The notes under the pieces: model-generated
The model's database searches: none
The model's input: the letters and a program-made list of their open reading frames with translations, nothing else
Told to the model about the DNA's origin: nothing
From: a bacterium
GTDB lineage: Bacteria > Patescibacteriota > Microgenomatia > Curtissbacterales > GWA2-41-24
Length of the DNA stretch: 64,000 bases
Assembly (NCBI GenBank): GCA_021813125.1
Contig: JAKALT010000003.1
Location: forward strand, 7,800 to 71,799
Direction: 5' to 3'
Position numbers and translations under genes: made by a program
Part shown: in pieces, positions 3,937 through 47,552 of the stretch
How the letters are laid out: each line of letters starts with the position of its first letter
Position numbering within the stretch: position 1 is the stretch's first letter

Positions 3937-3942
3937 TGTTTT

Positions 3943-3976
3943 TTAATTGTTAATAGTTAATCGTTAATAGTTAGTA
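3943..3976. promoter_or_regulatory. tandem heptamer repeat (GTTAATN)x3-4 immediately upstream of the purH (AICARFT) GTG start
   Basis: TTAATT GTTAATA GTTAATC GTTAATA GTTAGT begins 7 nt from the start codon (minus-strand gene). Confidence 0.3.
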
Positions 3977-4022
3977 AAAATTCATTTCCACCAACAATAA
4001 ACCATAAACTATGAACAATGAA

Positions 4023-5771: not shown

Positions 5772-5837
5772 GCAGTTAGTTTTTGTTTACACTGAGCATT
5801 TTAATGCGAACGTGTTTACCCTGAGCAATAATTCATA

Positions 5838-6948: not shown

Positions 6949-7947
6949 TTAATTTATGAATGTGAACGTAGATAAAACCCGTTTTATCTTATTCCAGTCA
7001 TCAGTTTTTTGATCCCCTTTGAAAAATACCTCAAAAACATTCTCCTTCTCCTCGCCTTTCGTAATAAAACCAACTCCCAACGATGGGATATTATTCTCTT
7101 GAAAAACGGTCAAGCCAATGTGCCTATTCCCAATTTGTTTTTCAAAAGTCTCATATTTAGATCCTCCGCCATCGATACCTCCATCGCAATCCATTGGTTT
7201 GATTCTAAAAACTGAACCGCCGCTAGAAACTAATGTTAATTGATTTGCCCTGATATCGCTGCACTTATCCAACGACAGAGACCAATTTTGGGGGTATTGA
7301 AAAGTAAAGTTGAAACTGTTGTTTGTATACGTTTTCCACCCCGCCGTTTCGTCGGAGATAAATTTGAAGGTGGAAAGGATTTGGTCTACAGTTTCTTGAA
7401 AACTTGCTTCGGTGTAGTAACTCTCACCGTTAAAACCGATTAATACTAATGTTTTCCCCTGGTTGTTTTCTACAAAAACCAGGATGGCTTCTTTTTTATT
7501 TGCATTTATTATCAACTGTTCAATTGCTCTTCTTCCCGAAACTGTTATCGATTTTGAATATTTCAGAGAATCACTGGCCGAAACATGATTTCTTGCTTCT
7601 CCTTCGATTGAAGTGTCAGTAATTGCGCAGAGCCCAAAACCGGTTTTCGAGGAGTCCTTTGGTCCAACATAGAATCCACAGCCAAGTTCTTCCCAGCTTC
7701 CCTTTGCTTCCCAGTTTGTTGGGTACTTAAATGAAAGTTTATAATAAGATTCTTCAATGAAGGTTTTCCAGTTTGAAGTTTCGTCAACTGAGGCCAAAGG
7801 CGAACTTTGCACCTCTGTTTTTTGATCAACAACTGGAGGTTTCTTGAGGTATTTCTGATAGCCGAACAATGCAACCGCGCCAACTGCAAGTGCAATTACA
7901 ACAACTACTAAAATCGGTACGAAGCCCCGGACAGGTTTCACTAACAT
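6949..7947 (-). CDS. array paralog, two-domain member (ANWKTY...ILSTFKF domain x2), subtype MKPxRGF
   Basis: N-terminal LVKPVRGF plus a hydrophobic anchor. It has two copies of the NWKT(F/Y)...KYPxNW motif and an internal ILSTFKFISDE junction, and ends VLSTFTFIN. Confidence 0.7.
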   Translation of the reverse strand: MLVKPVRGFVPILVVVVIALAVGAVALFGYQKYLKKPPVVDQKTEVQSSPLASVDETSNWKTFIEESYYKLSFKYPTNWEAKGSWEELGCGFYVGPKDSSKTGFGLCAITDTSIEGEARNHVSASDSLKYSKSITVSGRRAIEQLIINANKKEAILVFVENNQGKTLVLIGFNGESYYTEASFQETVDQILSTFKFISDETAGWKTYTNNSFNFTFQYPQNWSLSLDKCSDIRANQLTLVSSGGSVFRIKPMDCDGGIDGGGSKYETFEKQIGNRHIGLTVFQENNIPSLGVGFITKGEEKENVFEVFFKGDQKTDDWNKIKRVLSTFTFIN

Positions 7948-8034
7948 AATCGTAAATCTAAAACATTAGATTGTAAATGCTTTTTAAGGACAGTCCTTCA
8001 ATACTAAGGGCTGTCCTTGTCCTAAAAACTTTAA

Positions 8035-8646
8035 TTAATTTGTGAATTTAAAAGTCGAGAGGATTTGGTCTAATAAGGGTTTCTTCATATTTTCCGTGAT
8101 AATGAGTAAGTATCCCTCATTTGGTATCACAATAACGCGATAAGCTGGATTGTAACCACCATTTCCGCCGAGAGCCTCAACTGCTTTTTTACCATTAAAT
8201 ACTGTATCCTGTATTTTAATATTAGGTTTAGGATATGTACCGAAACTCTGGAGGTAATTATTGATCCATTGTTTTGGTGTTACATCGGTAGTCTCAGCAT
8301 ATATCTGTAATGTTATTGGTTCAGCGCTGATCACATTATCTGCATTATCCTGAATTATTAAGTGATCGGTTTCTTGATTAACAGGAATCCTCGGATTCTC
8401 CGCCTTTCGATCTAAATAATAAGGGGTGTGATTCTCAGGAAAATTTATCTCATACCCAAGTTTCGTATTTGTATACGTTTTCCAATTTGCGGTCGGATTT
8501 TGCTTAGTCGGAATTTCGGGCAACGTATCACCAATTATTTGTTTGCTGTGTATATATTTTTGGAGTAAGTAGATCGACAAAACACCAAGAATAAATCCAA
8601 TTACGGCAACGACAATAATCTGTATAAAACCACGGCGGGCAGACAT
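8035..8646 (-). CDS. array paralog, single-domain member, subtype MSARRGF
   Basis: MSARRGFIQIIVV anchor, TANWKTYTNTKLGYEINFP motif and C-terminal ILSTFKFTN. Confidence 0.7.
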   Translation of the reverse strand: MSARRGFIQIIVVAVIGFILGVLSIYLLQKYIHSKQIIGDTLPEIPTKQNPTANWKTYTNTKLGYEINFPENHTPYYLDRKAENPRIPVNQETDHLIIQDNADNVISAEPITLQIYAETTDVTPKQWINNYLQSFGTYPKPNIKIQDTVFNGKKAVEALGGNGGYNPAYRVIVIPNEGYLLIITENMKKPLLDQILSTFKFTN

Positions 8647-8677
8647 GATTCTAGTATTTCACTTCCATAACGAAGAG

Positions 8678-9115
8678 TCAAAGTGTTAGCTCTGAGATTA
8701 GGTCTTTAGGCGTGAGTGCTATCGCCGGTTTAAGAAACTTTGCAACCTTTTCATTTAAAAAGTCCTTGCGGTCTAATGTCACTAAGAAATCTGATTTTGA
8801 AAGCTTGGCTTCTGCCAGAATAACAGCGTCTTTTTGGGCAATGAACCTTTGCGCTTTTTGTAAAAGTTTAATATCGAATTGCGCTTTAAAAATTTGTGTC
8901 TGTCCGACAAGATTGAAAAAGCGCTCAAGATGGTATTCATGCAGTTTTGCCCTAACATTTCTTTCAGTCTCCGTCAAAACCCATGGGGAGACTAGCAACT
9001 TGATTTCTTTGATGGTAAATAGTTTTGCCGAACCGCCTGTTGGGGAATTGGTGGCTGTAAATAGGACGCTTGAGTCGACAAAGACAGTCTTCACAGCCTG
9101 TCTTCTTTTTGCCAC
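8678..9115 (-). CDS. PIN-domain toxin (VapC-like)
   Basis: 145 aa with a VFVDSSVL N-terminus and spaced acidic residues typical of PIN nucleases. It overlaps a Phd/YefM-like antitoxin ORF upstream. Confidence 0.6.
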   Translation of the reverse strand: MAKRRQAVKTVFVDSSVLFTATNSPTGGSAKLFTIKEIKLLVSPWVLTETERNVRAKLHEYHLERFFNLVGQTQIFKAQFDIKLLQKAQRFIAQKDAVILAEAKLSKSDFLVTLDRKDFLNEKVAKFLKPAIALTPKDLISELTL

Positions 9116-9354
9116 TCGTTAATCTCTTTTTGACTGAAATTGCGCGTTTGTGGCAAAAGTTTTGGGTCGATAAATGTCTTGCCATAAATCTTTTTGACTT
9201 CTTCCTCCAAGTGTTTAAGGTAAGCAACATCAACAAGAGCTGCTTGTGGGTTGCCGCCCTTAGTAAGGACAATGTATTGACTGCCCCGGACTTTCCTGGC
9301 AAGGTTGCCTAAGCTGTTCCTAGCCCGGGTTATAGGTACTATGTTTGTATTCAT
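9091..9354 (-). CDS. Phd/YefM-family antitoxin
   Basis: MNTNIVPITRARNSLGNLARKVRGSQYIVLTKGGNPQAALVDVAYLKHLEE matches the Phd/YefM fold consensus. The internal Met at 9354 was chosen as start, whereas the ORF track extends to 9405. It overlaps the PIN toxin by 25 nt. Confidence 0.6.
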   Translation of the reverse strand: MNTNIVPITRARNSLGNLARKVRGSQYIVLTKGGNPQAALVDVAYLKHLEEEVKKIYGKTFIDPKLLPQTRNFSQKEINEWQKEDRL

Positions 9355-9494
9355 AACGTTATAAGTATACATTATGTACAATAAAATGTCAAGTATTTTG
9401 TACAATAAAACGTGCAGTTAATTTAGAAATTTGAAGGTGGAGAGGATTTGTGTTGCTTTCGAGTCGAAATTTTCTTGTTTTAAACAATCAGAAG

Positions 9495-9842
9495 TCATCT
9501 TTTTTCGCAGGGCCGGTAATTAAATTCTATTGTTATTACGTCTTTCTTGGACGGACTTAAAAGAAATATTCTTTCTTGTTTTTCGGTTATTCCCTGATCG
9601 ATATGGGTGTAAAGAAACTTTTTTGTCTTAATATAATTTCCAGCAATTACTTGTTTACGGTCTTCCTCTTTCAAAAAGGTGCAATTAGCAAGAGCTCCTT
9701 GGGATTTTATCGGGTAGATAGTGCACGTTTGGAAACCAAAGGGTATGGGCTTGGTCTGGCAATCGTTCAGGCAGTTGTTAAGTAACATCATGGAACAACT
9801 GCTGTTACATTCTACACCTCGTAAGAAGTCAACATTTAGCAT
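9495..9842 (-). pseudogene. truncated duplicate of the 3' part of array gene 14255..14938
   Basis: A roughly 280 nt stretch at about 9421..9700 is near-identical to 14259..14530, and the encoded CTFLKEEDRKQVIAGNYIKTKKFLYTHIDQGITEKQERIFLLSPSKKDVITIEFNYRPCEK matches the C-terminal half of 14255..14938. It lacks the N-terminal anchor and the ANWKTY motif. Confidence 0.55.
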
Positions 9843-9872
9843 TTTACTACGGTATATCTATCCAAGTGTGCT

Positions 9873-10751
9873 TTAAATTGTGTAGAGAAATCCGAGGAAG
9901 TCAAGATACCACGGTTTGTCAGAAGAGATAACTGTACCATTTTGAGCGTTTATTTTTGTCTCAATAGTGGCATTGACAGGAATAAGTCCAACGAATTTTC
10001 GTTTCTGCATACCAGAAATGTCATAGTATGCCTGACCGTTTTGTTCCCCAAGAACTGCTGATTGAATAACGGTTGGTTTGTCACTCTGCTTCAGATCATT
10101 GACAGCTTGCGAAGGAAGAGTGCTGATAACAGTTACTCCGGTTGCTGTTTTAATACCAATAGTCTGTGATTTTGGGTCAATAACAACAGGCTGGTTGGTT
10201 GTTACCGTGATACCATTATTAACAAGTGTTACTGTCCCATTACTGCCTACACTTATCTGAACCGCCCCTGCCTCGGGATCCTGTATAGAAATAAGGGAAG
10301 TTTTGGAAGGCGGTACTGTTTTTTCTGTCTTAGTGCCGTCTGTCTTTTCAAGCTTAAGCGTTCCTTCGCTCGGCGTATTGGAGGTTGGGTGGACTTCTAC
10401 TTTTTCAACATTACCCTGCTGGACTTGGTTTTCAACTTCATGCTGAACATCTTTTGCTTCCTGCTCATGCTCTACTTCTTGCGCTTCTGGGGCTTCCGCG
10501 GGCTCAGGGGTTTCTACAGGTTCCTCCTCTTCAACGGTTTCCTGTTTTTCCACTTGTTCTTTCCAGGAGTTATTTGATTTCTCCCCTAAAACGTGGTTTG
10601 AACTGATTCCAACTTGAGAGAGAAATATGCCTCCCAAGATAAGAAGCGAAATAATGAGAGCTGAAAGTAAAAGACGTAAATAGGAACCTTTAGTTTTATT
10701 CGTAGAAAAGCTTTGCTTATTTACTTTACTTTTAGATTTTGACTTTTTCAT
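9873..10751 (-). CDS. hypothetical signal-anchored protein with an acidic Glu/Pro-rich linker and a Thr/Val-rich C-terminal region
   Basis: 292 aa with a K-rich N-terminus and TM anchor, an EEEPVETPEPAEAPEAQEVEHEQE low-complexity segment and beta-rich TVTLVNNGITVTT repeats. It is not a member of the ANWKTY family. Confidence 0.5.
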   Translation of the reverse strand: MKKSKSKSKVNKQSFSTNKTKGSYLRLLLSALIISLLILGGIFLSQVGISSNHVLGEKSNNSWKEQVEKQETVEEEEPVETPEPAEAPEAQEVEHEQEAKDVQHEVENQVQQGNVEKVEVHPTSNTPSEGTLKLEKTDGTKTEKTVPPSKTSLISIQDPEAGAVQISVGSNGTVTLVNNGITVTTNQPVVIDPKSQTIGIKTATGVTVISTLPSQAVNDLKQSDKPTVIQSAVLGEQNGQAYYDISGMQKRKFVGLIPVNATIETKINAQNGTVISSDKPWYLDFLGFLYTI

Positions 10752-10809
10752 AAAAAGACTTCTATTTCAGAATCTCAAATAGAAATCATAAAGTCAAGAC
10801 TTCGGACAG

Positions 10810-11658
10810 TTAATTTAGAAATTTAAATGTCGAAAGGATTTGGTCAAAATTATTTTTTACAGGAAGATCAAGAGTAAAATCATATAGAATTCCGTTATTT
10901 ACAAACTCCAAGCGTTTTACATAACCACTAGTTAAAAAAACAATTCCTTTTACTCCATCAATAGTGATGTATGTAAAATTTGTATTCTTCACATCTTTCC
11001 TGTAATCCTTTTCAATTATTGCTAATGTGGTTGTTGATGCTTCATAAGTATTAATAAAAAAGGTATTACCTAAGTCGGAAGTTGAGCCTTGGACCCCAAC
11101 CGATGCTGTATTTCCAATATCTTTATCTCCTTCAACACCACTTACTACTTCCGTATCTATTGGATACTTGAATGAATATTTATATTTTGAATTTGTATAC
11201 GTTTTCCAATTTGCAGTTTTGTCCCTTTTGAAATAATCGCCTTTTGACTTACAGGTGATTACATTTTGCCCTATTAATTGACCCGAAGCTTTTACAAATT
11301 CACCCTCTTTTGGCCAAGGAGAGTCTTGATCACAAAATACACCTGCCAGTTCTCTTTGCGGTACATTTACAGTGTAAACCGTGTTTTCTGACTGGACTTT
11401 AAAAGCAGCAAAATCGAACCCAGTTTTAATATCATTTCCAATAACTTTCCCGGAAATAGTCAAAACAGAGGTTTCATTATCTTTATTTGCAGAGCTAGGT
11501 GTTGATTGTTGTTCCGTTTGCGAAGAAGGTACCGAATCCCAATCTTTATAATTTAGCAAAGCGAAAGGAATTGCATGCATAAAAGCAAAATAGACAAATG
11601 GAATAAGAATGATCAATGCAACGATAATTATTAAAATCGGTGCAAAACCTTTTTTCAT
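10810..11658 (-). CDS. array paralog, single-domain member, subtype MKKGF
   Basis: MKKGFAPILIIIV anchor, KTANWKTYTNSKYKYSFKYP motif and C-terminal ILSTFKFLN. Its start overlaps the upstream gene stop (ATGA). Confidence 0.7.
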   Translation of the reverse strand: MKKGFAPILIIIVALIILIPFVYFAFMHAIPFALLNYKDWDSVPSSQTEQQSTPSSANKDNETSVLTISGKVIGNDIKTGFDFAAFKVQSENTVYTVNVPQRELAGVFCDQDSPWPKEGEFVKASGQLIGQNVITCKSKGDYFKRDKTANWKTYTNSKYKYSFKYPIDTEVVSGVEGDKDIGNTASVGVQGSTSDLGNTFFINTYEASTTTLAIIEKDYRKDVKNTNFTYITIDGVKGIVFLTSGYVKRLEFVNNGILYDFTLDLPVKNNFDQILSTFKFLN

Positions 11659-12848
11659 TGTGTGAATTTGAATGTCGAGAGAATTCGACTTACTTCCGCG
11701 TCATTCAATTTCTCATAAGGGGATATTAATATCCTATGCACATCTTCATCTACCGGGGTTAGTAGTAGCGCCATAACCTCATCATAAGAACTTTTTACAA
11801 CAATTGACTGTTTGCCCCCTAAAGAAAAATTATTTACAGTGTTAAGATCCAAAGTTCCTTCAACATCATTTACTTTTCCTTTTTTTGATGCCAAGTCTTT
11901 GTACCAATCTATTGGTTTACTGTATCCAGGTACTTCTTGGGGGTTAATATTACTTAAAATACGGATGTAAATATAATCTTGCGGATAACCGCTTTTTGGG
12001 TAACGCGGTTTAGCTTGTGATTCTTTTGTGGCAAAGTTTTGGTTCCTGATATAAACATCGTCCTCTGAATCATTATTGATCAACCACGTACTTGGATACT
12101 TTATGGAATACCCTAATTTTGTATTTGTATATGTTTTCCAGTTTGCAGTTTCGTTGGAAGTTAATTTAAATGCCGAGATCATATCATCAAGTATCGGCAT
12201 ATACTTTATTGGATCATCCTCAGAAGTAAGGATAAAATGATACATAACATTGTTGTGGACAAATAATTTTGTCAATGATTTTCCGGTTGAATCTGCTGTG
12301 CATTTAGAAAGAGGCTTCGGGGCTTGAATACAAATTTCTTGATCGTATTGCAAGCCGTCAATCTTCCCCAATGAGCCTATATTTAAAGTTATCGGTGTCG
12401 GATTATCAGGTGGTGGACCTGACGATCTAGGATCCTTAAAAAAATCGTTAAACCAATCCATTAATGTTGGAAATGATTCTGTATAAGCTTGGGAGGCTTG
12501 TACTTGAATAAATGCACCTTTGAATACTGTATCTTGTGCATTCAAGGGCGCCTGAAAATCGGGAGACATAAAATATAAGAATGCCTTTGATTGCCAATCG
12601 GGTGGATATTTAATAGAAAAATGATAGAGTGCTGGGTTTTGTGTTGTTACAAAATCTGCTGCATTATACGTTTTCCATTTTGCAGTTTCATCTGCTGAAA
12701 CCGACGGAGACGCCTGTGTTTCAATTTTTTGGCCAACTGCTGGAGATTTTTTGAGGAATTTCTGGTATCCAAATATTGCAGCCGCACCAAAAGCAAGTGC
12801 AATTACTGTAACTATAATAATTTGTACAAAACCGCGGCGGGCAGACAC
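11655..12848 (-). CDS. array paralog, two-domain member, subtype (M/V)SARRGF, probable GTG start
   Basis: Two motif copies (ETAKWKTYNAADF and ETANWKTYTNTKLGYSIKYPSTW), an internal MISAFKLTSNE junction and C-terminal ILSTFKFTQ. The ORF track start at 12917 would overlap the RelE-like gene by 65 nt. A GTG at 12846..12848 gives VSARRGF, matching the MSARRGF paralog at 8035..8646, and avoids the overlap. Confidence 0.65.
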   Translation of the reverse strand: MSARRGFVQIIIVTVIALAFGAAAIFGYQKFLKKSPAVGQKIETQASPSVSADETAKWKTYNAADFVTTQNPALYHFSIKYPPDWQSKAFLYFMSPDFQAPLNAQDTVFKGAFIQVQASQAYTESFPTLMDWFNDFFKDPRSSGPPPDNPTPITLNIGSLGKIDGLQYDQEICIQAPKPLSKCTADSTGKSLTKLFVHNNVMYHFILTSEDDPIKYMPILDDMISAFKLTSNETANWKTYTNTKLGYSIKYPSTWLINNDSEDDVYIRNQNFATKESQAKPRYPKSGYPQDYIYIRILSNINPQEVPGYSKPIDWYKDLASKKGKVNDVEGTLDLNTVNNFSLGGKQSIVVKSSYDEVMALLLTPVDEDVHRILISPYEKLNDAEVSRILSTFKFTQ

Positions 12849-12852
12849 ACTT

Positions 12853-13110
12853 TTAGTATATATCTTTTCTATAAGCGACATCTTCAAAATATATTGATTT
12901 TGCCTTGTCATCAACAAAATAAATTACCCTGACTTTACCTACCCTTAGCCTCCACGCACTGCTTCCTGCCAAATGCTTTACTTTTTTGCCTTTTGGAAAT
13001 GGATCCAAAGCTAATTTCTCTATCTCTGAAATTACCCTCTTTTTATCCTGCTTGTGAAGTTTTTTTAATTGTTTGTCAAAGCCTTGCGAAAATTGGAGCT
13101 TGTACGGCAT
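12853..13110 (-). CDS. RelE/ParE-family toxin
   Basis: 85 aa starting MPYKLQFSQGFDKQLKKLHKQDKKRVISEIEKLALDPFPKGKKVKHLAGSSAWRLRVGKVRVIYFVDD, typical of the RelE/ParE fold. Its start overlaps the stop of an upstream antitoxin-like ORF (TAATG). Confidence 0.65.
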   Translation of the reverse strand: MPYKLQFSQGFDKQLKKLHKQDKKRVISEIEKLALDPFPKGKKVKHLAGSSAWRLRVGKVRVIYFVDDKAKSIYFEDVAYRKDIY

Positions 13111-13382
13111 TAAAGACTATGTCTTTTTTTAATTTCATCCAGGCTAAAATATTTTCCACGGCCTGCAGTTTTTTCAAGTTTCCTGGCAACTATTGCATCC
13201 TCTAAATCTTCTATCGTTTCTTTAAGCTGGGAAAATTCTTCAATGGACATAATGACTGCTTTTGGTTTGGAATGGTGGTATAGAAATACAGGCTCGGCGG
13301 TTTTTTCAACTTGATCCAAAAGTTCCAGCGCTTTTTCGCGCATATCTGTAATGGTTTTTGTATTTTGTGCGGTAGGTATCAT
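13110..13382 (-). CDS. Phd/YefM- or RelB-like antitoxin
   Basis: 90 aa reading PVFLYHHSKPKAVIMSIEEFSQLKETIEDLEDAIVARKLEK, the antitoxin pattern of non-cleavable partner plus alpha-helical tail. It lies immediately upstream of the RelE-like toxin. Confidence 0.55.
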   Translation of the reverse strand: MIPTAQNTKTITDMREKALELLDQVEKTAEPVFLYHHSKPKAVIMSIEEFSQLKETIEDLEDAIVARKLEKTAGRGKYFSLDEIKKRHSL

Positions 13383-13421
13383 ATTTATCTTAGGTTAGTA
13401 TAAGATTAATCTAAGATTTTG

Positions 13422-14258
13422 TCAATTGGTAAATTTAAAGGTGGAGAGTATTTGGTCGAAAAGACGTACTTCATCTCGAAAAGGAATTTCTACTAATATG
13501 GAGTAGCCATTATTTTTATTTTCAGCGTATATAGATTTAATATAAGAATAAGTCTTTGTATTTGAAGGTTTATCCAGACTCTCTTCTTCAATAACACCTT
13601 CTTTTGCATGAACACCATCTAGATTCACACTTTTTATGTTTTTGAGGTCACGAAAAACACTTTCGCTAAAATCTTTACCTTGCCTCTCTTTATATTGGAT
13701 TAAGTATTCTTTGGAAAAATAGTATACCGTCAAAACTGAGTATTGGGCAGAAATATTACGTTCATGTCCTTCTATTACAAAGACCGGTATACCGAAGCTA
13801 GAATCTTCATAAACCTTAAAATCTGAAGGGTAAGAAATTTGAAATCCACGCTTTTGGTTTGTGTACGTTTTCCAATTCGTAGTTTCGGCTGTTTTAACTG
13901 TTTGTGGAGATGTATATTCATGCGATGAAAGTTTATAAACTGTACCGATAAAAGACACAAAATAAGTATCTGCTGTCGGGGTTTTAGATAATGATGGACA
14001 ACTTATGACAATTGTAGTTTGCCTGCCAAAATCGAAATAATCTTTCAAATTAAATTTGTTGACGTCAGCAGGGAAAGTGGTTTTATAATCATAAACAACT
14101 TTAGGGAGTTTGAACTCTTCGCAGGGTGGTTTTATAGTTGATAGCACTTTTTGTTTTGCAAAATTGTCGGTAACCCATGGAGCCCAAGCTGCTATAGAAA
14201 TCAATGAAATTAGAAAAATTAATCCTACAATTATTATTTGTGCAAAGCCTTTCTTCAT
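13422..14258 (-). CDS. array paralog, single-domain member, subtype MKKGF
   Basis: MKKGFAQIIIVGLIFLISLISIAAWAPW anchor, ETTNWKTYTNQKRGFQISYP motif and C-terminal ILSTFKFTN. Confidence 0.7.
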   Translation of the reverse strand: MKKGFAQIIIVGLIFLISLISIAAWAPWVTDNFAKQKVLSTIKPPCEEFKLPKVVYDYKTTFPADVNKFNLKDYFDFGRQTTIVISCPSLSKTPTADTYFVSFIGTVYKLSSHEYTSPQTVKTAETTNWKTYTNQKRGFQISYPSDFKVYEDSSFGIPVFVIEGHERNISAQYSVLTVYYFSKEYLIQYKERQGKDFSESVFRDLKNIKSVNLDGVHAKEGVIEEESLDKPSNTKTYSYIKSIYAENKNNGYSILVEIPFRDEVRLFDQILSTFKFTN

Positions 14259-14938
14259 AGGAATTTGAAGGTACCGAGGATTTGACTTGATTTTGAATCA
14301 TAATCTTCTTGTTTCAAACAATTCGAAGTCACGTCTTTTTCGCAAGGCCGGTAATTAAATTCTATTGTTATTATGTGTTCTTTAGACGGACTTAAAAGAA
14401 ATATTCTTTCTTGCTTTTCTGTTATTCCTTGATCAACATAGGTATAGAGAAACTTTTTTGTCTTAATATAATTTCCAACAATTACTTGTTTACAATCTTC
14501 CTCTTTCAAAAAAGTGCAGTCAGCAAGTGCTTCTTGGGATTTTACCGGCTCATCGTTACTTTCGGTTCTAACCTGAAAACCAAGATCTGAAAAGTTATTA
14601 TCTGGCCCGAAGCCTGGACTGAAGAAACAAAAAGTATTCTCATCTCCGGGGGAACCACCAGGGATTGCACAACTTTTGCCACCGTTTATTATCCGATAAT
14701 CTCCTGGGTAAGAAATTTGCCAACCTGATTTATCTGATTTATACGTTTTCCAATTCGCAGTTTGGTCTTGAGTCGTTGGAGATGGCAAAGATGCTAAATG
14801 GTCCTTTGTTAAAATTGGCGGGCCTTCTTCTTTCCAATTATTATATTTTTGATCATAAAATCTTAAGCCAATAACAGCAGCAACCAAAGTTAAAATTACT
14901 AAGATAATTATTAAAACCGGTGCAAAGCCTTTTTTCAT
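14255..14938 (-). CDS. array paralog, single-domain member, subtype MKKGF
   Basis: MKKGFAPVLIIILV anchor, TANWKTYKSDKSGWQISYPGDY motif and C-terminal ILGTFKFL. ATGA overlaps occur at both ends. Confidence 0.7.
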   Translation of the reverse strand: MKKGFAPVLIIILVILTLVAAVIGLRFYDQKYNNWKEEGPPILTKDHLASLPSPTTQDQTANWKTYKSDKSGWQISYPGDYRIINGGKSCAIPGGSPGDENTFCFFSPGFGPDNNFSDLGFQVRTESNDEPVKSQEALADCTFLKEEDCKQVIVGNYIKTKKFLYTYVDQGITEKQERIFLLSPSKEHIITIEFNYRPCEKDVTSNCLKQEDYDSKSSQILGTFKFL

Positions 14939-15801
14939 TGTGTAAATTTGAATGTCGAAATCATTGAATCGAAAATGGAATATATATTTTGCCTAAAATC
15001 CTTAGTTCCCCATGCTTGGATGAGATAACCGTCACTATTGTTCGCAACAACAACATATTTAAACTCTTCTGTCATCCCCTCAGCAGCAGATGCTATACCG
15101 GAATAAGCTGATTTACCATTAAGATTAAGGCTGAATTTTGATTGGATGTTTTCTCCGTGTAAAAAGTAATCAAAGGAAACAGCCAGTGAATTGTTATTAA
15201 TTTCTTTTTTAAGAATTCGCACTGTGCCACCTTGCGTTAAAATATCTTTTGTATCAGCAATTTTGTCAGGTGAAGAAAAAGCAATATCAAAGGTTTTATC
15301 ACTTATAAATTCAGACAGTTTATAATCTGGTGGATATTTTATAGAAAAAGAATCTTTTGTATACGTTTTCCAGTTCGCAGTTTCGTCAGTTTTAAAATAA
15401 TCGCCACTTCCCCCACAAGTAATCTCTTTTTCACCAGTCAAAACTCCTTTTGCGCTTACTTTACTATTTTCTTTAGGCCAAGGAGATTCCATATCGCAAA
15501 TTCTTGAAGGATCATATTTATTTGGGGTGTTTAATTTATAAATACCGTTGTCTGTTTGAATACTGAATATTGTATATTCATCAGTCTGAGTTAAACCTGG
15601 GAGCAAAACTCCATTTACAATAACCGATGAGGATAATTTTTTAGGTGTAGGTGTTGGAAGCGTATTTTGTTTATAAGTATTTAGCCCCGTAGGGTTTATT
15701 GGAATATTATTTTTTTGATAATAAAAATATGCAAAACTACCTATACCAATAATAATTGCCGCGGCCATCAAAAATATTAATAGTACAAAGCCTTTTTTCA
15801 T
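14935..15801 (-). CDS. array paralog, single-domain member, subtype MKKGF
   Basis: MKKGFVLLIFLMAAAIIIG anchor, ETANWKTYTKDSFSIKYPPDY motif and C-terminal MISTFKFTQ. Confidence 0.7.
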   Translation of the reverse strand: MKKGFVLLIFLMAAAIIIGIGSFAYFYYQKNNIPINPTGLNTYKQNTLPTPTPKKLSSSVIVNGVLLPGLTQTDEYTIFSIQTDNGIYKLNTPNKYDPSRICDMESPWPKENSKVSAKGVLTGEKEITCGGSGDYFKTDETANWKTYTKDSFSIKYPPDYKLSEFISDKTFDIAFSSPDKIADTKDILTQGGTVRILKKEINNNSLAVSFDYFLHGENIQSKFSLNLNGKSAYSGIASAAEGMTEEFKYVVVANNSDGYLIQAWGTKDFRQNIYSIFDSMISTFKFTQ

Positions 15802-16856
15802 TGAGATGTTTGAATCGTAGAGAAAATTTTTAATATCACCTCTCTATTATCCTTATATGGAGAGTGAGCTGTTGCATCTCCATAAACGATTGGAAATACA
15901 TTTGAACCTCGCCAACCAAAAAGTCTCCACCATTCGGTACCGTCCGAGTTTACACCGTGGCAAGATTTTACCGTCTGGTCTTTTAAGCTAAGGCTGTAAT
16001 TTTGTTCGCAACCTCCAGCCCCAAATTGTGTAGCCCACCCTATTTCAATCAAACCTTCTTTCCCTCGTAAGGTAATCCCATCTTCTTGTATATCCATCTT
16101 TGGTTTTTGAGTAATTGTCCAGTCAGGTGGATATTTAAGCAAGAAATTGGCTTGATTATTCGTATACGTTTTCCAATTTGCAGTTTCGTCAGAAGTGAAT
16201 TTAAATGTTGAGAGGATTTGGTTGAATAGTGGATCTATTTTTGATCCCGGCCCAGAACTTTCAGCGGGAATATAAATCCAGAAACCTTTTCCATTTCTAT
16301 TAAACTTTATGACACTTCCCCCTTCACCACCGAATGTCCCTCGATTATAAATAAGGTTTGCTTCTTGTCCAGCTAATTGGATTTTTGTTGATTTTTCGCT
16401 TTGGCTGAGCGTATTAATGTTTATTTCCTTTGGCTCAATGCTTACTTGGAATTGAGTTCCGTCTTCTCCTGGAATATTACAATTTTTGACATCTTCGGAA
16501 CTATACCAACTTAAATCCGGTTTTTGTAACTTAAACCTTGCCCAAAGTTTCCCGCCTGTTCTAAAACAACCCTCTGGATATTCCAGAAAGAGTTTATCTT
16601 CAGGATATTTAAAACTTAAGCCAACTTCTTCAAAAGTATATGTTTTCCAGTTTGCCCCGATTAAATCTGGGTTTGCAGTTTCATCTGGCACTGGTGCTGT
16701 CGATGACTGTGGAGATTCATATAATTTCGGACCCCCGCAGCCAATGGGGCTTTTGCATGGATCAAATAATCCAATTGTGTAATAAATAGTGTAACCCAGA
16801 AAAACGATAGCGGCTAAAACAATTATTACTATTATCGGTACGAAGCCTTTTTTCAT
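15798..16856 (-). CDS. array paralog, two-domain member, subtype MKKGF
   Basis: MKKGFVPIIVIIV anchor with two motif copies (ANWKTYTFEEVGLSFKYP and ETANWKTYTNNQANFLLKYPPDW). The domain junction reads ILSTFKFTSDE and the protein ends ILKIFSTIQTSQ. Confidence 0.7.
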   Translation of the reverse strand: MKKGFVPIIVIIVLAAIVFLGYTIYYTIGLFDPCKSPIGCGGPKLYESPQSSTAPVPDETANPDLIGANWKTYTFEEVGLSFKYPEDKLFLEYPEGCFRTGGKLWARFKLQKPDLSWYSSEDVKNCNIPGEDGTQFQVSIEPKEININTLSQSEKSTKIQLAGQEANLIYNRGTFGGEGGSVIKFNRNGKGFWIYIPAESSGPGSKIDPLFNQILSTFKFTSDETANWKTYTNNQANFLLKYPPDWTITQKPKMDIQEDGITLRGKEGLIEIGWATQFGAGGCEQNYSLSLKDQTVKSCHGVNSDGTEWWRLFGWRGSNVFPIVYGDATAHSPYKDNREVILKIFSTIQTSQ

Positions 16857-17959
16857 TGTGTGAATTTAAATGTCGAGAGAATCTGCCCAATTTTTGCTTG
16901 ACAATTGCTATCAGGTGTCCAAGACCAAATGATTAATGGGTCAACTTTAGATTTAAACGTGTCGGAAAAGTAATAATTAAAAATGCCACTGCCTCCTTCT
17001 GTTTTCGACCATGACCTTAATGTAAACGCTTTATTATCAATGTTAATTTTACTTTCCTTCATATACGAAGTAGGACCACTACTTCCACCTATAGAGGCAA
17101 TGTACAAAGTACAACCCTTACCATCGGTTACTAACTCGTTACTTGTCTCATAAATACGAACGTACGGGTCAAGTTTAACCTGGCTACTCTTTGCATTTTG
17201 AATATACTGCCAATCAGGTGGGTATTTAAATTCAATATAGAATTTGCTGCTTTTTAAGGTTTTCAAGTTCGCCCCGACTGAATCAGGGTTTGCAGTTTCG
17301 TCGGATATGAATTTAAAGGTGGAAAGAATTTGGTCAAATGTTTTCATAAAATCGTTTCTATAACCCGCTTGTAAAAACTGCGCAGTGATTTCCCAAAGCG
17401 TTCCATTATGGTCTATGTATACATATGTGTCGTAGTGTGACATAGCATCCAATCCTGCGCCTCGTGCGTCAACTTTGAGCTTAATGGATGGAAATCCCGC
17501 AATTGTTAAATTAGTTTTTGTAGGTGTTTTGTCTCCGTTAAAATTGCCGTTTTTAAAAATTTCCGGCAATTTAGTGATTTTGCCGTCTTTCGCATTTCTA
17601 AAAAAATCAAACGCCTCCCTTTCCTTTAATAAACTGGGTCCAATATAAATTAGGACGGATTTTGATTCGGATCCGTAATTGCTTAAAATCACGCCTTTTT
17701 TAGTCCACAACTCACCTGTATGCGGCTCCAGAATATCTCCAGGATATTTTATAGAAAATCCGAACGTATTATCCTCATATGTTTTCCAGTTTGCAGTTTC
17801 GTCTGCAGATCCCAAGGGCGAAGCTTGCGTTTCATTCTTTTGGTCAACAACTGGAGGTTTCTTGAGGTATTTCTGATAGCCAAACATTGCAACCGCGCCA
17901 ATCAAAAGCGCAATTACTGCAACGGCAATAATTTGTGCAAATCCTCGGGCAGGTTTCAC
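16853..17959 (-). CDS. array paralog, two-domain member, subtype MKPARGF (GTG start)
   Basis: MKPARGFAQIIAVAVIALLIGAVAMFGYQKYLKKPPVVDQK N-terminus that is near-identical at nucleotide level to that of 6949..7947. Two motif copies with an ILSTFKFISDETANPDS junction, and it ends ILSTFKFTQ. Confidence 0.7.
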   Translation of the reverse strand: MKPARGFAQIIAVAVIALLIGAVAMFGYQKYLKKPPVVDQKNETQASPLGSADETANWKTYEDNTFGFSIKYPGDILEPHTGELWTKKGVILSNYGSESKSVLIYIGPSLLKEREAFDFFRNAKDGKITKLPEIFKNGNFNGDKTPTKTNLTIAGFPSIKLKVDARGAGLDAMSHYDTYVYIDHNGTLWEITAQFLQAGYRNDFMKTFDQILSTFKFISDETANPDSVGANLKTLKSSKFYIEFKYPPDWQYIQNAKSSQVKLDPYVRIYETSNELVTDGKGCTLYIASIGGSSGPTSYMKESKINIDNKAFTLRSWSKTEGGSGIFNYYFSDTFKSKVDPLIIWSWTPDSNCQAKIGQILSTFKFTQ

Positions 17960-18028
17960 TAATTTAATCGTAGATCTAAAACAGCAGGTTGTAAATACAT
18001 TACAAGGACAGCCCTTGATCTAAAAGAA

Positions 18029-18829
18029 TTAATTTGTGAATTTAAATGTCGAAAGGATTTGGTCAAAAAGATTCTTATCCTTTAAAAGAACGGAATAAAT
18101 CTCAATTGTTTTATTTTTATCTTTATTTGGGACCCAGGCGTGTATTTGGCCATTTCCATCAACTCTCCAATAGACAAGATGTCCATTCAGATTAATTTTT
18201 TTGCTTTCTTTAATTTCCATCGGTATGCAACCAATCTCACTATTGCCATCACCACTCCCTCCACACGGAGTACTTTGCCATTGTTCTTCTGCATATTCCT
18301 TGCTTCCATCGTTCCATTCGATAATACTTATATCGATTGCATTATCACCCATTGAAACATCATCCATCTCATTCACAGTCCAATTACCTGGATAAGAAAT
18401 TTGATACAAATTGTCTTTAGATTTGTATGTTTTCCAATTCGCCGTTTCGTTGGTTGTGTTTTTGGTTTGCTGGATTTGACTCTTGAGAAGTATAGGTGTG
18501 CTTTCTTTTAGCTTTACAGTTCCAAGAAAAGATACAAAATATATGTTTTTAGTACTTTTTCCGTCGCAGATAACATATAGGGTAGTTTCTTTACCAAATG
18601 GTGGCACTAAACCTAATTGTTCAGGTAAAGTAGGCTTTTTCCAATATGGATTAATTATAGGTGGTGCATATTCATTCTGCGTTAACTGGCGACAGGATGG
18701 ATTGAGGGATTTTAAGGCTTTTTGATAGGCAAATTGGTTAGTTATCCATGGCGCCCAAGCAGTGATATAAATCAATGAAATTAGAACAATTAATCCTACA
18801 ATAATAATTTGTACAAAGCCTTTTTTCAT
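18029..18829 (-). CDS. array paralog, single-domain member, subtype MKKGF
   Basis: MKKGFVQIIIVGLIVLISLIYITAWAPW anchor (closest paralog of 13422..14258), ETANWKTYKSKDNLYQISYPGNW motif and C-terminal ILSTFKFTN. Confidence 0.7.
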   Translation of the reverse strand: MKKGFVQIIIVGLIVLISLIYITAWAPWITNQFAYQKALKSLNPSCRQLTQNEYAPPIINPYWKKPTLPEQLGLVPPFGKETTLYVICDGKSTKNIYFVSFLGTVKLKESTPILLKSQIQQTKNTTNETANWKTYKSKDNLYQISYPGNWTVNEMDDVSMGDNAIDISIIEWNDGSKEYAEEQWQSTPCGGSGDGNSEIGCIPMEIKESKKINLNGHLVYWRVDGNGQIHAWVPNKDKNKTIEIYSVLLKDKNLFDQILSTFKFTN

Positions 18830-19518
18830 AGGAATTTGAAGGTGGTCAGGATTTGTAGTAATAGTTTTCTATCATCTATGCTAGGTAATTGTTTAGAATA
18901 GAGTTGAAAATCTGCACCGTTAGTACCATTCATTTGAGGAAATAATACCCAATGTCCGTCATTAAAAACTATTTCGTTTGATTTTACAGAATTACCATTA
19001 AATTCTACTTGTACTTCATTCCATGATTTATAACCACCGCTTCCTATAGTGTAAGTACTAGTTTTTGTTATTAATTCATGGGGACTTGTTCCAACAACTG
19101 TATTATATGTAAATTGTATATCTTGATAGTTATCCTTATTAATAATTTTTTGCATATCTATAATCTCATTTGGATTTCCTTCTGGTCGAACCTGTTTCCA
19201 GTCAACTGGCGCTTTCACCGAAAAATTTTTTGATATATACGTTTTCCAGTTTGCGGTTGTGTCGGAAATGGAAGTTTGCTGAGGTTGCCAGCCTGTACAA
19301 TCAGGACTGCTTTGAACAGTGTCAGGTTTTGTAAACATACAAATACAACCGCTACCAGTTTTCGTTTCGCACTCTGCTTGTGTCGGATAAGAAACTATAT
19401 TTTTGTTAGTAGTTTGAGGCTGAGTTTTTGGTTCGAGTTGCCAAACGGCAACTGCGGACAATGCTATGATTGCTATTACTAGAATAATTATTAAAATCGG
19501 TGCGAAACCTTTTTTCAT
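18826..19518 (-). CDS. array paralog, single-domain member, subtype MKKGF
   Basis: MKKGFAPILIIILVIAIIAL anchor, TANWKTYISKNFSVKAPVDW motif and C-terminal ILTTFKFL. Confidence 0.7.
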   Translation of the reverse strand: MKKGFAPILIIILVIAIIALSAVAVWQLEPKTQPQTTNKNIVSYPTQAECETKTGSGCICMFTKPDTVQSSPDCTGWQPQQTSISDTTANWKTYISKNFSVKAPVDWKQVRPEGNPNEIIDMQKIINKDNYQDIQFTYNTVVGTSPHELITKTSTYTIGSGGYKSWNEVQVEFNGNSVKSNEIVFNDGHWVLFPQMNGTNGADFQLYSKQLPSIDDRKLLLQILTTFKFL

Positions 19519-19543
19519 AGGAATTTAACTGTACAGAGAATCA

Positions 19544-20557
19544 TTATTTTATAGCCTCATAGGTTGATAAAATCTCCAGCAAAATATTTCTATTAGTTTT
19601 AGTAGGAGGATTTGCCACAACATATGTATCCGCCTGAACTCCTTTAGGCCTGAATAAACCCCAAGACTCCTTTGTGTTGGTAACTAAATGACACGCTGGT
19701 ACATCGCCATCTTTCAACCGAATTTTTTCAAAGTCAACACTACAAGCACCTCCGAGACCAGATCCCCAGATAAAATCTATAGAACCTTCCTTACCGCTTA
19801 AAGTTGAATCCGGATTCCCCTGCCACTTGTCTAAATATTCAAGCTTCCAAGCGGGAGGGTATTTAATTTGAAATTTTGCTTCTTCATTTGTATACGTTTT
19901 CCAATTCGCCGTTTCGTCGGAAGTAAATTTAAATGTCGAGAGGATTTGGTTAAAAAGCGGATTTGGTAATTTGTTTGAATAATGATGAATAAAAAAGAGT
20001 TTGTCGCCTTTTGTAACAACAACATCCTCTTGCTGTGCCATAACGTTTTTATAAATTATCTCTAAGGCTTTATTGCCGTTAATTTCAGTATTTTTTATAG
20101 AACCAATTTTACCCTGCGAAAAATAATCAGGACATGCTTTTTTTACGTAATCTTCGGGTGAAATTTTTCCAACATTGTCCGCAACGCTTAAACTTACCCA
20201 CAAGTCTCCCAAAAATTCCGTTTCCGGTCCTAATTTTTTATAATCTGCGGGATAAATTTTTATATCTACAATACCTTTTGTATTTGCACAGAGCTGTTTC
20301 CCCTCAACACTATCCTTAAACTCCACCGGTTTTTCTTCGGGGTATTTTAGGGAAAAACCGTACTTAGAATTTGTATACGTTTTCCAATTTGCCGTCTCAT
20401 CCACTGAAGCCAAAGGGGAAGCTTGTGTTTCGGCTTTTTGGCTAACTGCCGGAGTTTTCTTGATGAATTTCTGGTATCCGAAAGTTGCGGCCGCACCAAA
20501 AACAAGTGCAATTATGGCAACAATAATAATTGCTGCAAACCCTCGGGCAGGTTTCAT
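19544..20557 (-). CDS. array paralog, two-domain member, subtype MKPARGF
   Basis: MKPARGFAAIIIVAIIALVFGAAATFGYQKFIKK N-terminus with two motif copies (ETANWKTYTNSKYGFSLKYP and ETANWKTYTNEEAKFQIKYPPAW). The junction reads ILSTFKFTSDE and the protein ends ILSTYEAIK. Confidence 0.7.
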   Translation of the reverse strand: MKPARGFAAIIIVAIIALVFGAAATFGYQKFIKKTPAVSQKAETQASPLASVDETANWKTYTNSKYGFSLKYPEEKPVEFKDSVEGKQLCANTKGIVDIKIYPADYKKLGPETEFLGDLWVSLSVADNVGKISPEDYVKKACPDYFSQGKIGSIKNTEINGNKALEIIYKNVMAQQEDVVVTKGDKLFFIHHYSNKLPNPLFNQILSTFKFTSDETANWKTYTNEEAKFQIKYPPAWKLEYLDKWQGNPDSTLSGKEGSIDFIWGSGLGGACSVDFEKIRLKDGDVPACHLVTNTKESWGLFRPKGVQADTYVVANPPTKTNRNILLEILSTYEAIK

Positions 20558-36443: not shown

Positions 36444-36452
36444 CTAAAGCTG

Positions 36453-41576: not shown

Positions 41577-41577
41577 G

Positions 41578-46976: not shown

Positions 46977-47552
46977 ATGAGGCCGAAGCCGAAGCCTGGG
47001 TTTTTCCTACCTATCCCGATAATTGCCGTATTTGTAATTGTTGTGGGCGGCTTTTTTCTTATTCGATTACTTTGGAAATACACACCCGTTATAAATGCGC
47101 AAATTTCCGACAAATATCTGCTCCCCGGCGAAACCACTTCCAGCTCAATTTCCGACACCGGCAAATGGTTGACCCACACAAACAGCAAATACAACTACAC
47201 TATAAAGTACCCACAAATATTAAGCGGAAAATACAACTACGAAACAAATAATGATCTAATCCTTTCGCGGGAAAGATTTATCTCCAACAAAATCGATATC
47301 ACTTTAACTGTTTACAACAAATTCGACACAAAAGATTTAAAGGATGTAGACAAGGTTGGCACCAACGAATTCTTCTATTATAAAAACGATCTCGATGCCA
47401 AAGGAGTCGTTGTAAAACATAACAATCTCTTCTACGCCATCGAATTTACCCAAATAAATTACTTCACCGAAACCCCTTATTTTTCCAGCTCAACTCAATT
47501 TAAGGAAATCTTTGACCTAATCCTCAAAAACTTCCAGTTTAACGACCAATAA
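46977..47552 (+). CDS. distant paralog of the ANWKTY/ILSTFKF family
   Basis: N-terminal anchor, then TGKWLTHTNSKYNYTIKYPQ and C-terminal FDLILKNFQFNDQ. These parallel the ANWKTYTN..KYP and ILSTFKF motifs of the array genes. Confidence 0.45.
   Translation: MRPKPKPGFFLPIPIIAVFVIVVGGFFLIRLLWKYTPVINAQISDKYLLPGETTSSSISDTGKWLTHTNSKYNYTIKYPQILSGKYNYETNNDLILSRERFISNKIDITLTVYNKFDTKDLKDVDKVGTNEFFYYKNDLDAKGVVVKHNNLFYAIEFTQINYFTETPYFSSSTQFKEIFDLILKNFQFNDQ

Follow-up and report, generated by a model that had tools for sequence, protein, structure and literature searches.

An Array of Membrane-Anchored PsbP-Like Proteins in a Variable Genomic Slot of a Curtissbacteria-Like Bacterium

Introduction

Bacteria of the Candidate Phyla Radiation (CPR), or Patescibacteria, make up a large part of bacterial diversity, and most of them depend on a host as far as is known. 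How their surfaces recognise their partners is a question raised in a concrete form by a 64,000-nt stretch of contig JAKALT010000003.1 (GenBank assembly GCA_021813125.1, positions 7,800 to 71,799 of the forward strand; GTDB lineage Patescibacteriota, Microgenomatia, Curtissbacterales, GWA2-41-24), referred to below as the window. Between its positions 6949 and 20557, the window carries a tandem array of paralogous genes sharing two blocks of conserved residues, to which a preliminary description had assigned no known family. What are these proteins, how was such an array built up, and what might its products do?

The array consists of 12 intact family genes with a total of 17 domains within 13.6 kb. 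They encode a membrane-anchored module with the modelled PsbP/Mog1 fold, they lie in a slot whose content differs between near relatives, and whole modules of this kind have moved between genes and between lineages. The stronger claim that the fold or the family is unknown has been dropped: the proteins fall into an existing Pfam family and an established fold superfamily, and no new family is involved. Two features are, to our knowledge, undescribed in the searchable literature: such an extreme tandem expansion within a slot varying among near relatives, and the block-mediated exchange of modules in a very large, CPR-typical family. The family, which is unstudied, probably bears on the surface biology of bacteria that depend on a host, and what was an anonymous motif now provides concrete candidates for surface-interaction studies in cultivable Patescibacteria.

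Family and Fold of the Domain

The domain was identified as Pfam PF18933 (PsbP_2, "PsbP-like protein"). Five of the 12 proteins exceed the gathering threshold of this family (27 bits, whole-protein hidden Markov model (HMM) score), while three score below the cut-off and four give no match in single-protein searches; the individual scores are given in the list of genes below. The PF18933 profile spans the N-terminal anchor as well as the domain (residues 12–217 of one protein on profile positions 2–184, for example), and the same precomputed label is carried by many database homologues. An HMM made from the array's own domains ties all 17 of them together, and matches exactly the 17 copies counted in the preliminary description.

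The proteins do not belong to PsbP proper: the PF01789 scores were at most 16.8 bits as against a threshold of 23.5, those obtained with NF040946 (photosystem II PsbP) were at most 15 as against 60, and no photosynthesis genes were found among the window open reading frames (ORFs) examined. As regards DcrB/DUF1795, a profile search of the PDB sequences reached DcrB only at E 0.04.

The structure prediction gave a known fold, not an unknown one. The AlphaFold2 model of the first domain of g19544, based on 92 aligned domains (pLDDT 90.5, pTM 0.85), shows an N-terminal beta-hairpin, further strands, a mid helix, a four-stranded meander, and a C-terminal helix followed by a short final strand. On the evidence of this model, the domain has the fold of PsbP, Mog1, DcrB, and LpqN and is a member of the Mog1/PsbP superfamily. 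Foldseek retrieved PsbP with the domain model at E 1e-6, and the fold similarities occur at 8–14% sequence identity. The fold matches and their scores were as follows:

BT_1490: 11.9
Cyanobacterial PsbP: 11.7
Jonesia protein 3lyd: 11.0
PA0094/EagT6: 10.8
TplEi: 10.4
LpqN: 10.2
Plant PsbP and PnsL1: 9.7–10.2
Mog1: 9.6
Tsi3: 9.4
MTC28: 9.3
Apa: 9.2
DcrB: 9.1

In the model, the conserved ends of the domain correspond largely to the N-terminal hairpin and the C-terminal helix and strand that are standard in the PsbP/Mog1 fold. A comparable signature, Y..GY.F.YP..W, is present in the PsbP family.

The array differs in several respects from the systems with which it shares this family or fold. Its resemblance to PF18933 lies in the profile match, which covers both anchor and domain; the tandem layout, the stacking of one to six domains, and the exchange of modules are outside the family description in the searched literature, where the family has no described function. 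PsbP, CyanoP, PPL, and PnsL have a cleaved transit peptide or a lipobox, in place of which the array proteins carry an N-terminal membrane anchor, and the organism here is non-photosynthetic. No Cys occurs in or near the hydrophobic segment of any array protein, whereas DcrB and LpqN are lipoproteins; the Eag proteins (DUF1795) are cytoplasmic chaperones. We know of no large tandem array of paralogs in the case of DcrB/DUF1795/Eag, LpqN, MTC28, or Apa. Tsi3 and TplEi (Tli4), to which the sequence identity is 8–11%, differ in that the array has no adjacent cognate effectors and no type VI secretion system (T6SS) context.

Composition of the Array

Every long ORF listed between 6949 and 20557 lies on the minus strand, in line with the preliminary description. 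The latter counted 13 genes; the thirteenth element, at about 9418–9720, is a 3' relic of a g14255 paralog, showing about 88% DNA identity over some 300 nt with the 3' part of g14255, a 1-nt deletion causing a frameshift, and neither anchor nor NWKTY block. The genes and other elements are the following:

6949..7947, minus strand: g6949, two PsbP-like domains (d1 7354–7785, d2 6952–7353); PF18933 43.7 bits
8035..8646, minus strand: g8035, 203 aa, one domain (8038–8499), leader MSARRGF; no Pfam match alone
8678..9405, minus strand: PIN toxin and Phd/YefM antitoxin pair inserted in the array
9418..9720, minus strand: pseudogene relic, 3' part of a g14255 paralog (repeat D9, at 89%, and repeat D5)
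9873..10751, minus strand: anchored protein unrelated to the family, with an acidic stretch of low complexity
10810..11658, minus strand: g10810, 282 aa, anchor, extra N-terminal module of about 90 aa (2 Cys), one domain (10813–11223); no PF18933 match
11655..12848, minus strand: g11655, two domains (d1 12156–12692, d2 11658–12155); PF18933 25.5 bits
12853..13382, minus strand: ParE-like toxin and Phd/YefM antitoxin pair inserted in the array
13422..14258, minus strand: g13422, 278 aa, anchor, extra N-terminal module (2 Cys), one domain (13425–13889); PF18933 27.1 bits
14255..14938, minus strand: g14255, 227 aa, one domain (14258–14767), 6 Cys, 4-nt start/stop overlaps with both neighbours; PF18933 13.6 bits
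14935..15801, minus strand: g14935, 288 aa, extra N-terminal module, one domain (14938–15387); no PF18933 match
15798..16856, minus strand: g15798, two domains (d1 16191–16688, d2 15801–16190, a short variant); PF18933 35.9 bits
16853..17959, minus strand: g16853, two domains (d1 17303–17803, d2 16856–17302), leader MKPARGF; PF18933 38.1 bits
18029..18829, minus strand: g18029, 266 aa, extra N-terminal module, one domain (18032–18451); PF18933 17.2 bits
18826..19518, minus strand: g18826, 230 aa, Cys-rich linker (4 Cys), one domain (18829–19263); no PF18933 match
19544..20557, minus strand: g19544, two domains (d1 19919–20401, d2 19547–19918); PF18933 39.2 bits; the protein modelled
46977..47552, plus strand: lone divergent family copy, 191 aa, one domain (HMM match at 47151–47546), leader ...KPGFFLPIPII; no Pfam match

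The lone copy outside the array had been noted before, as had the five two-domain members (6949, 11655, 15798, 16853, and 19544), in which the junction reads (I/M)(L/I)S(T/A)FK(F/L)(T/I)S(D/N)ETA.... Four genes carry a small extra module with a Cys pair ahead of the domain, of one type in 10810 and 14935 and of another in 13422 and 18029. Homology of leaders and upstream DNA indicates that two start codons were probably placed too far upstream: the true start of g6949 is probably GTG 7941 (MKPVRGF), and that of g11655 is probably GTG 12848 (MSARRGF; repeat D12), not TTG 12917, so that the overlap with the ParE gene disappears. Six 4-nt start/stop overlaps occur in the array, five genes (16853, 15798, 14935, 14255, and 13422) being joined in an unbroken run. 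These overlaps point to translational coupling and, together with the 26,476 clusters of related proteins described below, argue that the family ORFs are real genes.

Conserved Blocks and Variable Core

The domain opens with (D)ETANWKTYTN..F.FKYP.(D)W and closes with (D)QILSTFKF(T)(N/Q/S). Pairwise comparison of the 17 domains gives a mean identity of 54% over the first 24 residues, which form the N block, and of 52% over the last 13, which form the C block, as against 14% in the core, the length of which ranges from 88 to 135 aa. The contrast between conserved ends and a divergent middle is thus as previously described; the length of the domain, which had been put at about 170 aa, ranges from 124 to 179 aa. 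All residues that are invariant or nearly so (T, W, K, T, Y, Y, P and L, S, T, F, F) fall within the two end blocks, and at no position of the core does the domain alignment show conservation of Asp, Glu, His, Ser, or Cys.

The preliminary statement that near-identical DNA encodes the first block at least 16 times was too strong. The 29-mer occurs with no more than 3 mismatches at 8 sites only (none in 100 shuffles), and a repeat search yields 14 copies of the motif DNA at 64–100% identity over 45 nt. The same synonymous codon is used in 0.62 of the pairs in the N block (0.43 expected) and in 0.51 in the C block (0.39 expected). Homogenisation of the blocks at the DNA level was rejected on the grounds of this moderate excess, the similarity between the block DNAs resulting mostly from the conservation of the amino acids. 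The eighth residue of the NWKTY block (Thr8) is encoded by ACG in 11 of the 17 array copies and by ACA in 81 of 121 copies elsewhere, ACG accounting for 12% of the Thr codons in the other genes of the window; Lys is encoded by AAA throughout in both blocks of the array. This local Thr-ACG signature suggests shared descent of the array blocks or some conversion among them.

Anchor, Leader, and Topology

All 12 proteins share one plan: a basic N-terminus of 4–8 residues ending in [KR]GF, a hydrophobic stretch, a linker rich in Ser, Thr, Pro, and Gln, and one or two domains. There is a single hydrophobic stretch per protein (Kyte-Doolittle 2.6–3.2). The model of full-length g19544 shows a helix at residues 7–32 starting at the Phe after Gly6, a low-confidence linker (33–58), and the two domains; its pTM of 0.58 suggests that the modules have no fixed mutual arrangement. 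The Cys residues noted earlier in several members are confined to the ectodomains: all 38 in the 12 proteins occur after the hydrophobic helix, and the counts (4, 0, 2, 2, 2, 6, 2, 6, 2, 4, 4, and 4) are all even, which has a chance probability of about 5e-4 in the case of 11 Cys-containing proteins. These even counts fit disulfide-bonded ectodomains, and the proteins are predicted to have an N-in/C-out topology.

The leader resembles a class III signal, with a basic segment of 4–14 residues ending in [KRQ]-G followed by F, I, or L and the hydrophobic helix. It is present in all 12 array proteins, in the lone copy, and in 71 of the 218 homologues having a recognisable helix. Glu at +5 was found in no family member, and TIGR02532 (GFxxxE) gave no match to the family leaders at E values of up to 10, while a pilin encoded in the window (41673–44171) scored 29.7 bits against a cut-off of 16.3.

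Two of the leaders (8625–8646 and 12827–12848, minus strand) read (M)SARRGF(I/V)Q and are twin-arginine-like (S-R-R-x-F). Plant PsbP is a classical substrate of the twin-arginine translocation (Tat) pathway. A Tat signal was rejected in the case of the array since RR occurs only in g8035 and g11655 (SARRGF), the ten other leaders being of the KKGF or ARGF type, and the hydrophobic stretch is long and too hydrophobic.

The Slot Between mreB and the Wzy_C Gene

The order of the genes in the window is dprA ... purH, PBP2, mreB, the array, Wzy_C (divergent), an IVP-like gene, SHMT ... folD ... priA. The array is bounded by the following two genes:

5838..6890, minus strand: mreB, followed by the PBP2 gene at 4023–5771
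20631..22619, plus strand: gene for a Wzy_C (O-antigen-ligase-like, TPR-tailed) membrane protein, divergent to the array

The same backbone is present in relatives, which vary in what lies between mreB and Wzy_C:

Window: 12 genes, 17 domains
L131 (Curtissbacteria; MreB 93% identical): 3 genes (2 HMM-detectable domains)
L126 (MreB 90%): empty (76 nt)
L121/L127 (MreB 79%): 2 genes, 3 domains
L122 (MreB 79%): 3 genes, 3 domains, and the same PIN/Phd pair (84% DNA identity)
L128–130 (MreB 74%): empty
74 loci (MreB 50–56%): no family domain within 10 kb of mreB

The GC content of the array is 34–38%, as compared with 42–46% in the flanks. In L126, a g8035-like family gene (3390–4076, minus strand) lies between priA and the gene for a 197-aa membrane protein, whereas no gene is present at the corresponding site of the window (27055–27185); family genes therefore also move between sites. 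A PIN/Phd-like pair, 70% identical, occurs beside family genes in L094.

A spacer of 67 nt separates mreB from the PBP2 gene (4023–6890, minus strand), neither mreC nor mreD being located there, and the same holds in L121 and L122. The Wzy_C gene changes much faster than its neighbours: among the orthologues considered (L121, L122, L126, and L131), the protein identity is 63–65%, as against 92–93% for SHMT and 90–93% for MreB in the same genome pairs. Enzymes of the Wzy_C family include protein O-oligosaccharyltransferases; that the Ser/Thr/Pro/Ala-rich linkers of the family might be substrates of the Wzy_C protein is pure speculation.

Exchange of Modules

The clearest case of exchange is the core of the first domain of g11655. 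A segment of 535 ungapped nt (12159..12693, minus strand), running from GATGAAACTGC (DETA) to TTTAAATTAACT (FKLT), is 85.2% identical to a gene of L131 that encodes a 224-aa single-domain protein, and the alignment is gap-free. Upstream of this cassette the leaders are unrelated (52% identity with 29 gap columns; MSARRGFVQ... versus MKKGFATVLL...), and downstream of it the L131 gene ends, while the window gene runs on into its second domain. The synonymous divergence (pS) of the cassette is 0.38, whereas values of 0.65, 0.71, 0.55, and 0.72 were obtained with MreB, PBP2, SHMT, and Wzy_C, respectively, in the same pair of genomes. The cassette has therefore been shared more recently than the genomes diverged.

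The second case is a mosaic segment of g18029 (18425..18704, minus strand; nt 126–405 of the gene), extending from the extra module through the NWKTY block. It shows 87.5% DNA identity with an L121 gene, reaching 97% over the 90 nt at 271–360, and the identity drops to 41.6% from the first base past the NWKTY block. The mreB genes of these two genomes are 73% identical (pS 0.68).

At the protein level, the same cores are found with other leaders in other genomes at 59–73% identity. The g14935 core is 63% identical to the first domain of homologue P0005, a two-domain protein with the leader MKPAQGF; that of the first domain of g19544 is 60% identical to P0002, the N-terminus of which is long and rich in Pro; and that of the first domain of g16853 is 59% identical to the single-domain P0075. 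Among the paralogs of the array, synonymous sites in the cores are saturated (pS 0.5–0.9), and the leaders of the MKPARGF subgroup are less divergent (pS 0.32–0.43) than the cores of the same gene pairs.

We read these mosaics as the result of recombination inside the blocks that encode the motifs. Since the blocks coincide with the boundaries of the fold, recombination within them would swap or stack intact modules, both inside and across lineages. The array is probably a fast-turnover island in the Wzy_C–mreB slot, built through duplication, decay, insertion of toxin-antitoxin pairs, and recombination.

Size and Distribution of the Family

When 1.84 billion cluster representatives were searched with a profile built from the 17 domains, 26,476 proteins were retrieved at E ≤1e-3 (clusters counted at 50% identity) and 6,763 at E ≤1e-10. 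The homologues contain one to six domains each, and every source name shown for them is "hypothetical protein", in agreement with the earlier remark that no function had been assigned. The organisms include Microgenomates, Levybacteria, Daviesbacteria, Paceibacterota, and the "Patescibacteria group". The SHMT of the window clusters at ≥90% identity with a "Candidatus Curtissbacteria" protein encoded on the contig of L131, so that the window probably comes from a Curtissbacteria-like member of the Microgenomates; exact matches to its proteins are present in NCBI assembly GCA_027346405.1. Our search of the literature yielded nothing linking the PsbP_2 family to CPR bacteria; the hypervariable proteins mentioned there in connection with Patescibacteria are those of the host, not those of the epibiont.

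A degenerate DNA pattern for TANWKTYTN retrieved 116 stretches (one genome per species), most of which are titled as Patescibacteria groups. The 8-kb stretches around the motif hold 1–7 domains, usually 1 or 2, which places the window, with 17 domains in 13.6 kb, at the extreme. Some copies elsewhere adjoin unrelated genes such as those for PNPase, Lon, and RNase J. About one fifth of the stretches shown are titled as Gammaproteobacteria or Pseudomonadales metagenome-assembled genomes (L005, L006, L009, L010, L019, L020, L037, L041, and L049, along with L055, L058, L067, L074, L075, L077, L081, and L082). In L082, six domains lie beside a PBP2 gene whose product is 38% identical to that of the window, as compared with 35–37% for named Patescibacteria; these titles may be taxonomic mislabels.

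Possible Functions

With moderate confidence, we take the products of the array to be anchored, non-enzymatic PsbP-like surface modules, the variable loops of which would bind different partners, so that the array would amount to a repertoire. The window would encode 12 bitopic PsbP_2 membrane proteins of a Curtissbacteria-like CPR bacterium, each with its basic N-terminus of 4–8 residues inside the cell, one transmembrane helix, and a flexible linker rich in Ser, Thr, Pro, and Gln. Outside the membrane there would be one or two disulfide-stabilised modules of the PsbP/Mog1 fold, preceded in four genes by the small extra module. The WKTYTN...F.FKYP..W hairpin and the FDQILSTFKF helix with its short strand would form the two termini of each fold unit, and the variable middle would contribute the remainder of the sheet along with the loops, the likely binding surface. 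The lack of a conserved Asp, Glu, His, Ser, or Cys in the core argues against an enzyme, and the proteins are most likely binding or scaffold modules with a range of specificities. Other members of the fold are binders of proteins or lipids and not catalysts: PsbP binds photosystem II, Mog1 binds Ran, Tsi3 and TplEi bind effectors, LpqN binds MmpL transporters and lipids, and Apa binds fibronectin. The preliminary proposal of diversified surface binding proteins is in this way supported indirectly, by the anchor and the even Cys counts, the absence of conserved residues of the catalytic type, the variable slot, and the exchange of modules.

Several points weigh against this picture. The binding role is drawn by analogy with other members of the fold and from the absence of catalytic residues, and seven of the 12 proteins score below the PF18933 threshold on their own. 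The case for exchange consists of two clear examples and the protein-level mosaics, which is a small sample. Of the eight unique ends of DNA matches between genomes, five fall no more than 20 nt from a block, as against a random expectation of 17.5%, but this statistic is small and partly circular, BLAST matches stopping where similarity stops. The saturation of the paralog cores means that the copies are old, having been assembled or retained here and lost elsewhere and not recently amplified, and it precludes any dN/dS verdict on diversifying selection. Lastly, the conservation of ETANWKTYTN and ILSTFKF over thousands of proteins otherwise 25% identical exceeds the obvious needs of the fold, and may mark an unrecognised shared partner or a processing signal.

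It was also considered whether the ectodomains might regulate or scaffold the PBP2/MreB-dependent synthesis of peptidoglycan, as accessories of the elongation machinery co-transcribed with mreB-mrdA. The array precedes mreB-PBP2 by 58 nt in the same orientation, an arrangement that recurs in L121 and L122; family genes abut PBP2 in the more distant L045, L059, and L082; PBP2 is present in four of the 116 motif-selected 8-kb loci, where about 0.75 would be expected; a Paceibacterota contig has a family gene after three Mur ligases and a glucosaminidase; and LpqN and DcrB, which share the fold, are established actors in envelope biogenesis. However, nothing occupies the slot in relatives whose MreB is 90% and 74% identical, for which reason a functional operon with mreB/PBP2 was downgraded, and mreB has no family domain within 10 kb in the 74 more distant loci. 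In addition, copies elsewhere stand beside PNPase, Lon, and RNase J, cell-wall genes are common chance neighbours in 1-Mb genomes, and twelve divergent paralogs would be unexpected in a stoichiometric component of a machine, so that this role is improbable. The same broad grade, or a slightly higher one, applies to the idea that the proteins are surface decoys or inhibitors, each variant neutralising a different hostile protein (a lytic enzyme or a toxin, for instance, or a component of phage injection) in the manner of the T6SS immunity proteins Tsi3 and TplEi or of phage-encoded exclusion lipoproteins. The fold matches to Tsi3 and TplEi are in keeping with it, as are the best viral matches, which are phage entries named "lipoprotein" and "host cell surface-exposed lipoprotein" (E 7e-7 to 4e-4), and divergent, laterally exchanged paralog arrays in variable islands are typical of immunity repertoires. 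On the other hand, fold similarity at 8–14% identity says nothing about the ligand, CPR cells are considered to have no periplasm, which is where T6SS immunity proteins act, and none of the copies has an effector or toxin gene as its partner: the ORFs between 6949 and 20557 include no T6SS-type effector and consist of the family genes, two toxin-antitoxin pairs, one unrelated protein, and the relic, the sole toxins being cytoplasmic ones of type II systems. Membership of a defence system was rejected, no PADLOC model being matched.

The leader raises the further possibility that the proteins are class III substrates of a prepilin peptidase, cut after the invariant Gly and anchored or assembled via the helix like archaeal "bindosome" proteins or pseudopilins. 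Its length varies (MKKG, MKPARG, MKPARVYPESNRRG) while G-F is constant, the modelled helix begins exactly at F+1, and the motif is confined in the window to the pilins and the PsbP_2 family; since true type IV pilin-like proteins are encoded in the window, the peptidase is expected in the genome. Processing of this kind is nevertheless unlikely, in view of the lack of Glu at +5 and of any TIGR02532 match, the at most weak, sub-threshold matches to pilin models, the long N-terminal tails devoid of the motif in two thirds of the family members elsewhere, and the fact that no peptidase gene was seen in the window. That the proteins carry host lipids or hydrophobic nutrients, as LpqN or START-type proteins do, for an organism unable to make lipids would suit the general lack of lipid biosynthesis in CPR bacteria, but the START matches are weak and absence from close relatives is unexpected in a nutrient carrier, which makes this very unlikely. 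Programmed antigenic variation, in which silent cassettes would be copied to one expression site via the conserved blocks, is more unlikely still. As in the cassette families of Mycoplasma, Neisseria, and Borrelia, conserved coding blocks flank variable cores, with breakpoints at the blocks, at which modules are exchanged, and the local codon signature of Thr8 could be put down to copying; unlike those cassettes, all 12 copies are complete and separately startable, each with its own start codon and anchor, and just one is truncated. The saturated cores exclude recent copying between paralogs, there is no invertase or recombinase, neither the repeat search nor the Pfam-annotated genes revealed a diversity-generating retroelement, and the exchange is on an evolutionary scale and between lineages, with no sign of programmed switching.

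The picture of anchored binding modules can be extended, although we regard the extension as doubtful. Coinciding with the ends of an autonomously folding PsbP-like unit, the NWKTY and STFKF blocks would serve as universal joints at which homologous recombination allows CPR bacteria to swap, stack (one to six per protein), and re-address surface modules with different leaders, inside arrays as well as across lineages, giving these host-dependent cells a rapidly changing repertoire for host attachment or for the evasion of phages or host defences. In one version of this proposal, the [KR]G-F leader would be a class III signal lacking Glu that is cut by the pilin peptidase.

Upstream Elements and Other Features of the Window

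A promoter-like element, TTTACA-N17-TACGAT, is present at 17967..17995 (minus strand), ending 7 nt before the GTG start of g16853, and a matching element lies ahead of g6949 at 7949–7977; the distance to the start codon in the MKPARGF-type genes is 7–8 nt. As a match to the consensus, it suggests that the mRNAs would be almost leaderless, and the transcription units are putative. The upstream DNA of the MKPARGF-type genes is kept between paralogs, with 80% identity over 236 nt including non-coding DNA (repeat D4), and it also contains (7949–8020 and 17967–18017, minus strand) a hairpin, CAAGGGCTGTCCTTG, at 18003–18017, with an imperfect counterpart near 8006–8020. A scan for promoters and terminators was rejected as a guide to operon structure, the counts being close to those of shuffled DNA (58 vs. 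43.5±6.8 and 14 vs. 12±3.8).

The gene between Wzy_C and SHMT (22620–22982, plus strand) encodes a 120-aa four-helix bundle that matches 23S_rRNA_IVP at 121.6 bits and bAvd at 38.1 bits, the cut-off of the latter being 40. bAvd is an accessory protein of diversity-generating retroelements. Hypervariability driven by such an element was considered on account of this neighbour and set aside: the repeat search found no template-repeat/variable-repeat type of pair in the window outside the family blocks and the tRNAs, and no reverse transcriptase (RVT) domain is on record for the Pfam-annotated genes, several ORFs, especially at about 46.5–64 kb, never having been searched.

Genes for type IV pilin-like proteins whose N-termini read GFTLIEV are clustered at 36735–44171 (plus strand). 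The cluster includes a giant pilin-like protein of 832 aa (TIGR02532, GspG-like N-terminus, DNRLRE domain, and a weak PilW_C match), which is adjoined by a 751-aa protein with a weak match to Peptidase_C39_2. A cluster of tRNA-Thr(GGU), tRNA-Tyr(GUA), and tRNA-Thr(UGU) lies just upstream of the pilin-like genes (36452–36696, minus strand) and tRNA-Trp just downstream of them (44205–44276, plus strand). Two intergenic elements of 59 nt (48078–48136 and 61401–61459, plus strand), which are 71% identical and show the internal complementarity AAAGGGCAGGCCTT...AAGGCCTTCCCTT, may be terminators or members of a small repeat family.

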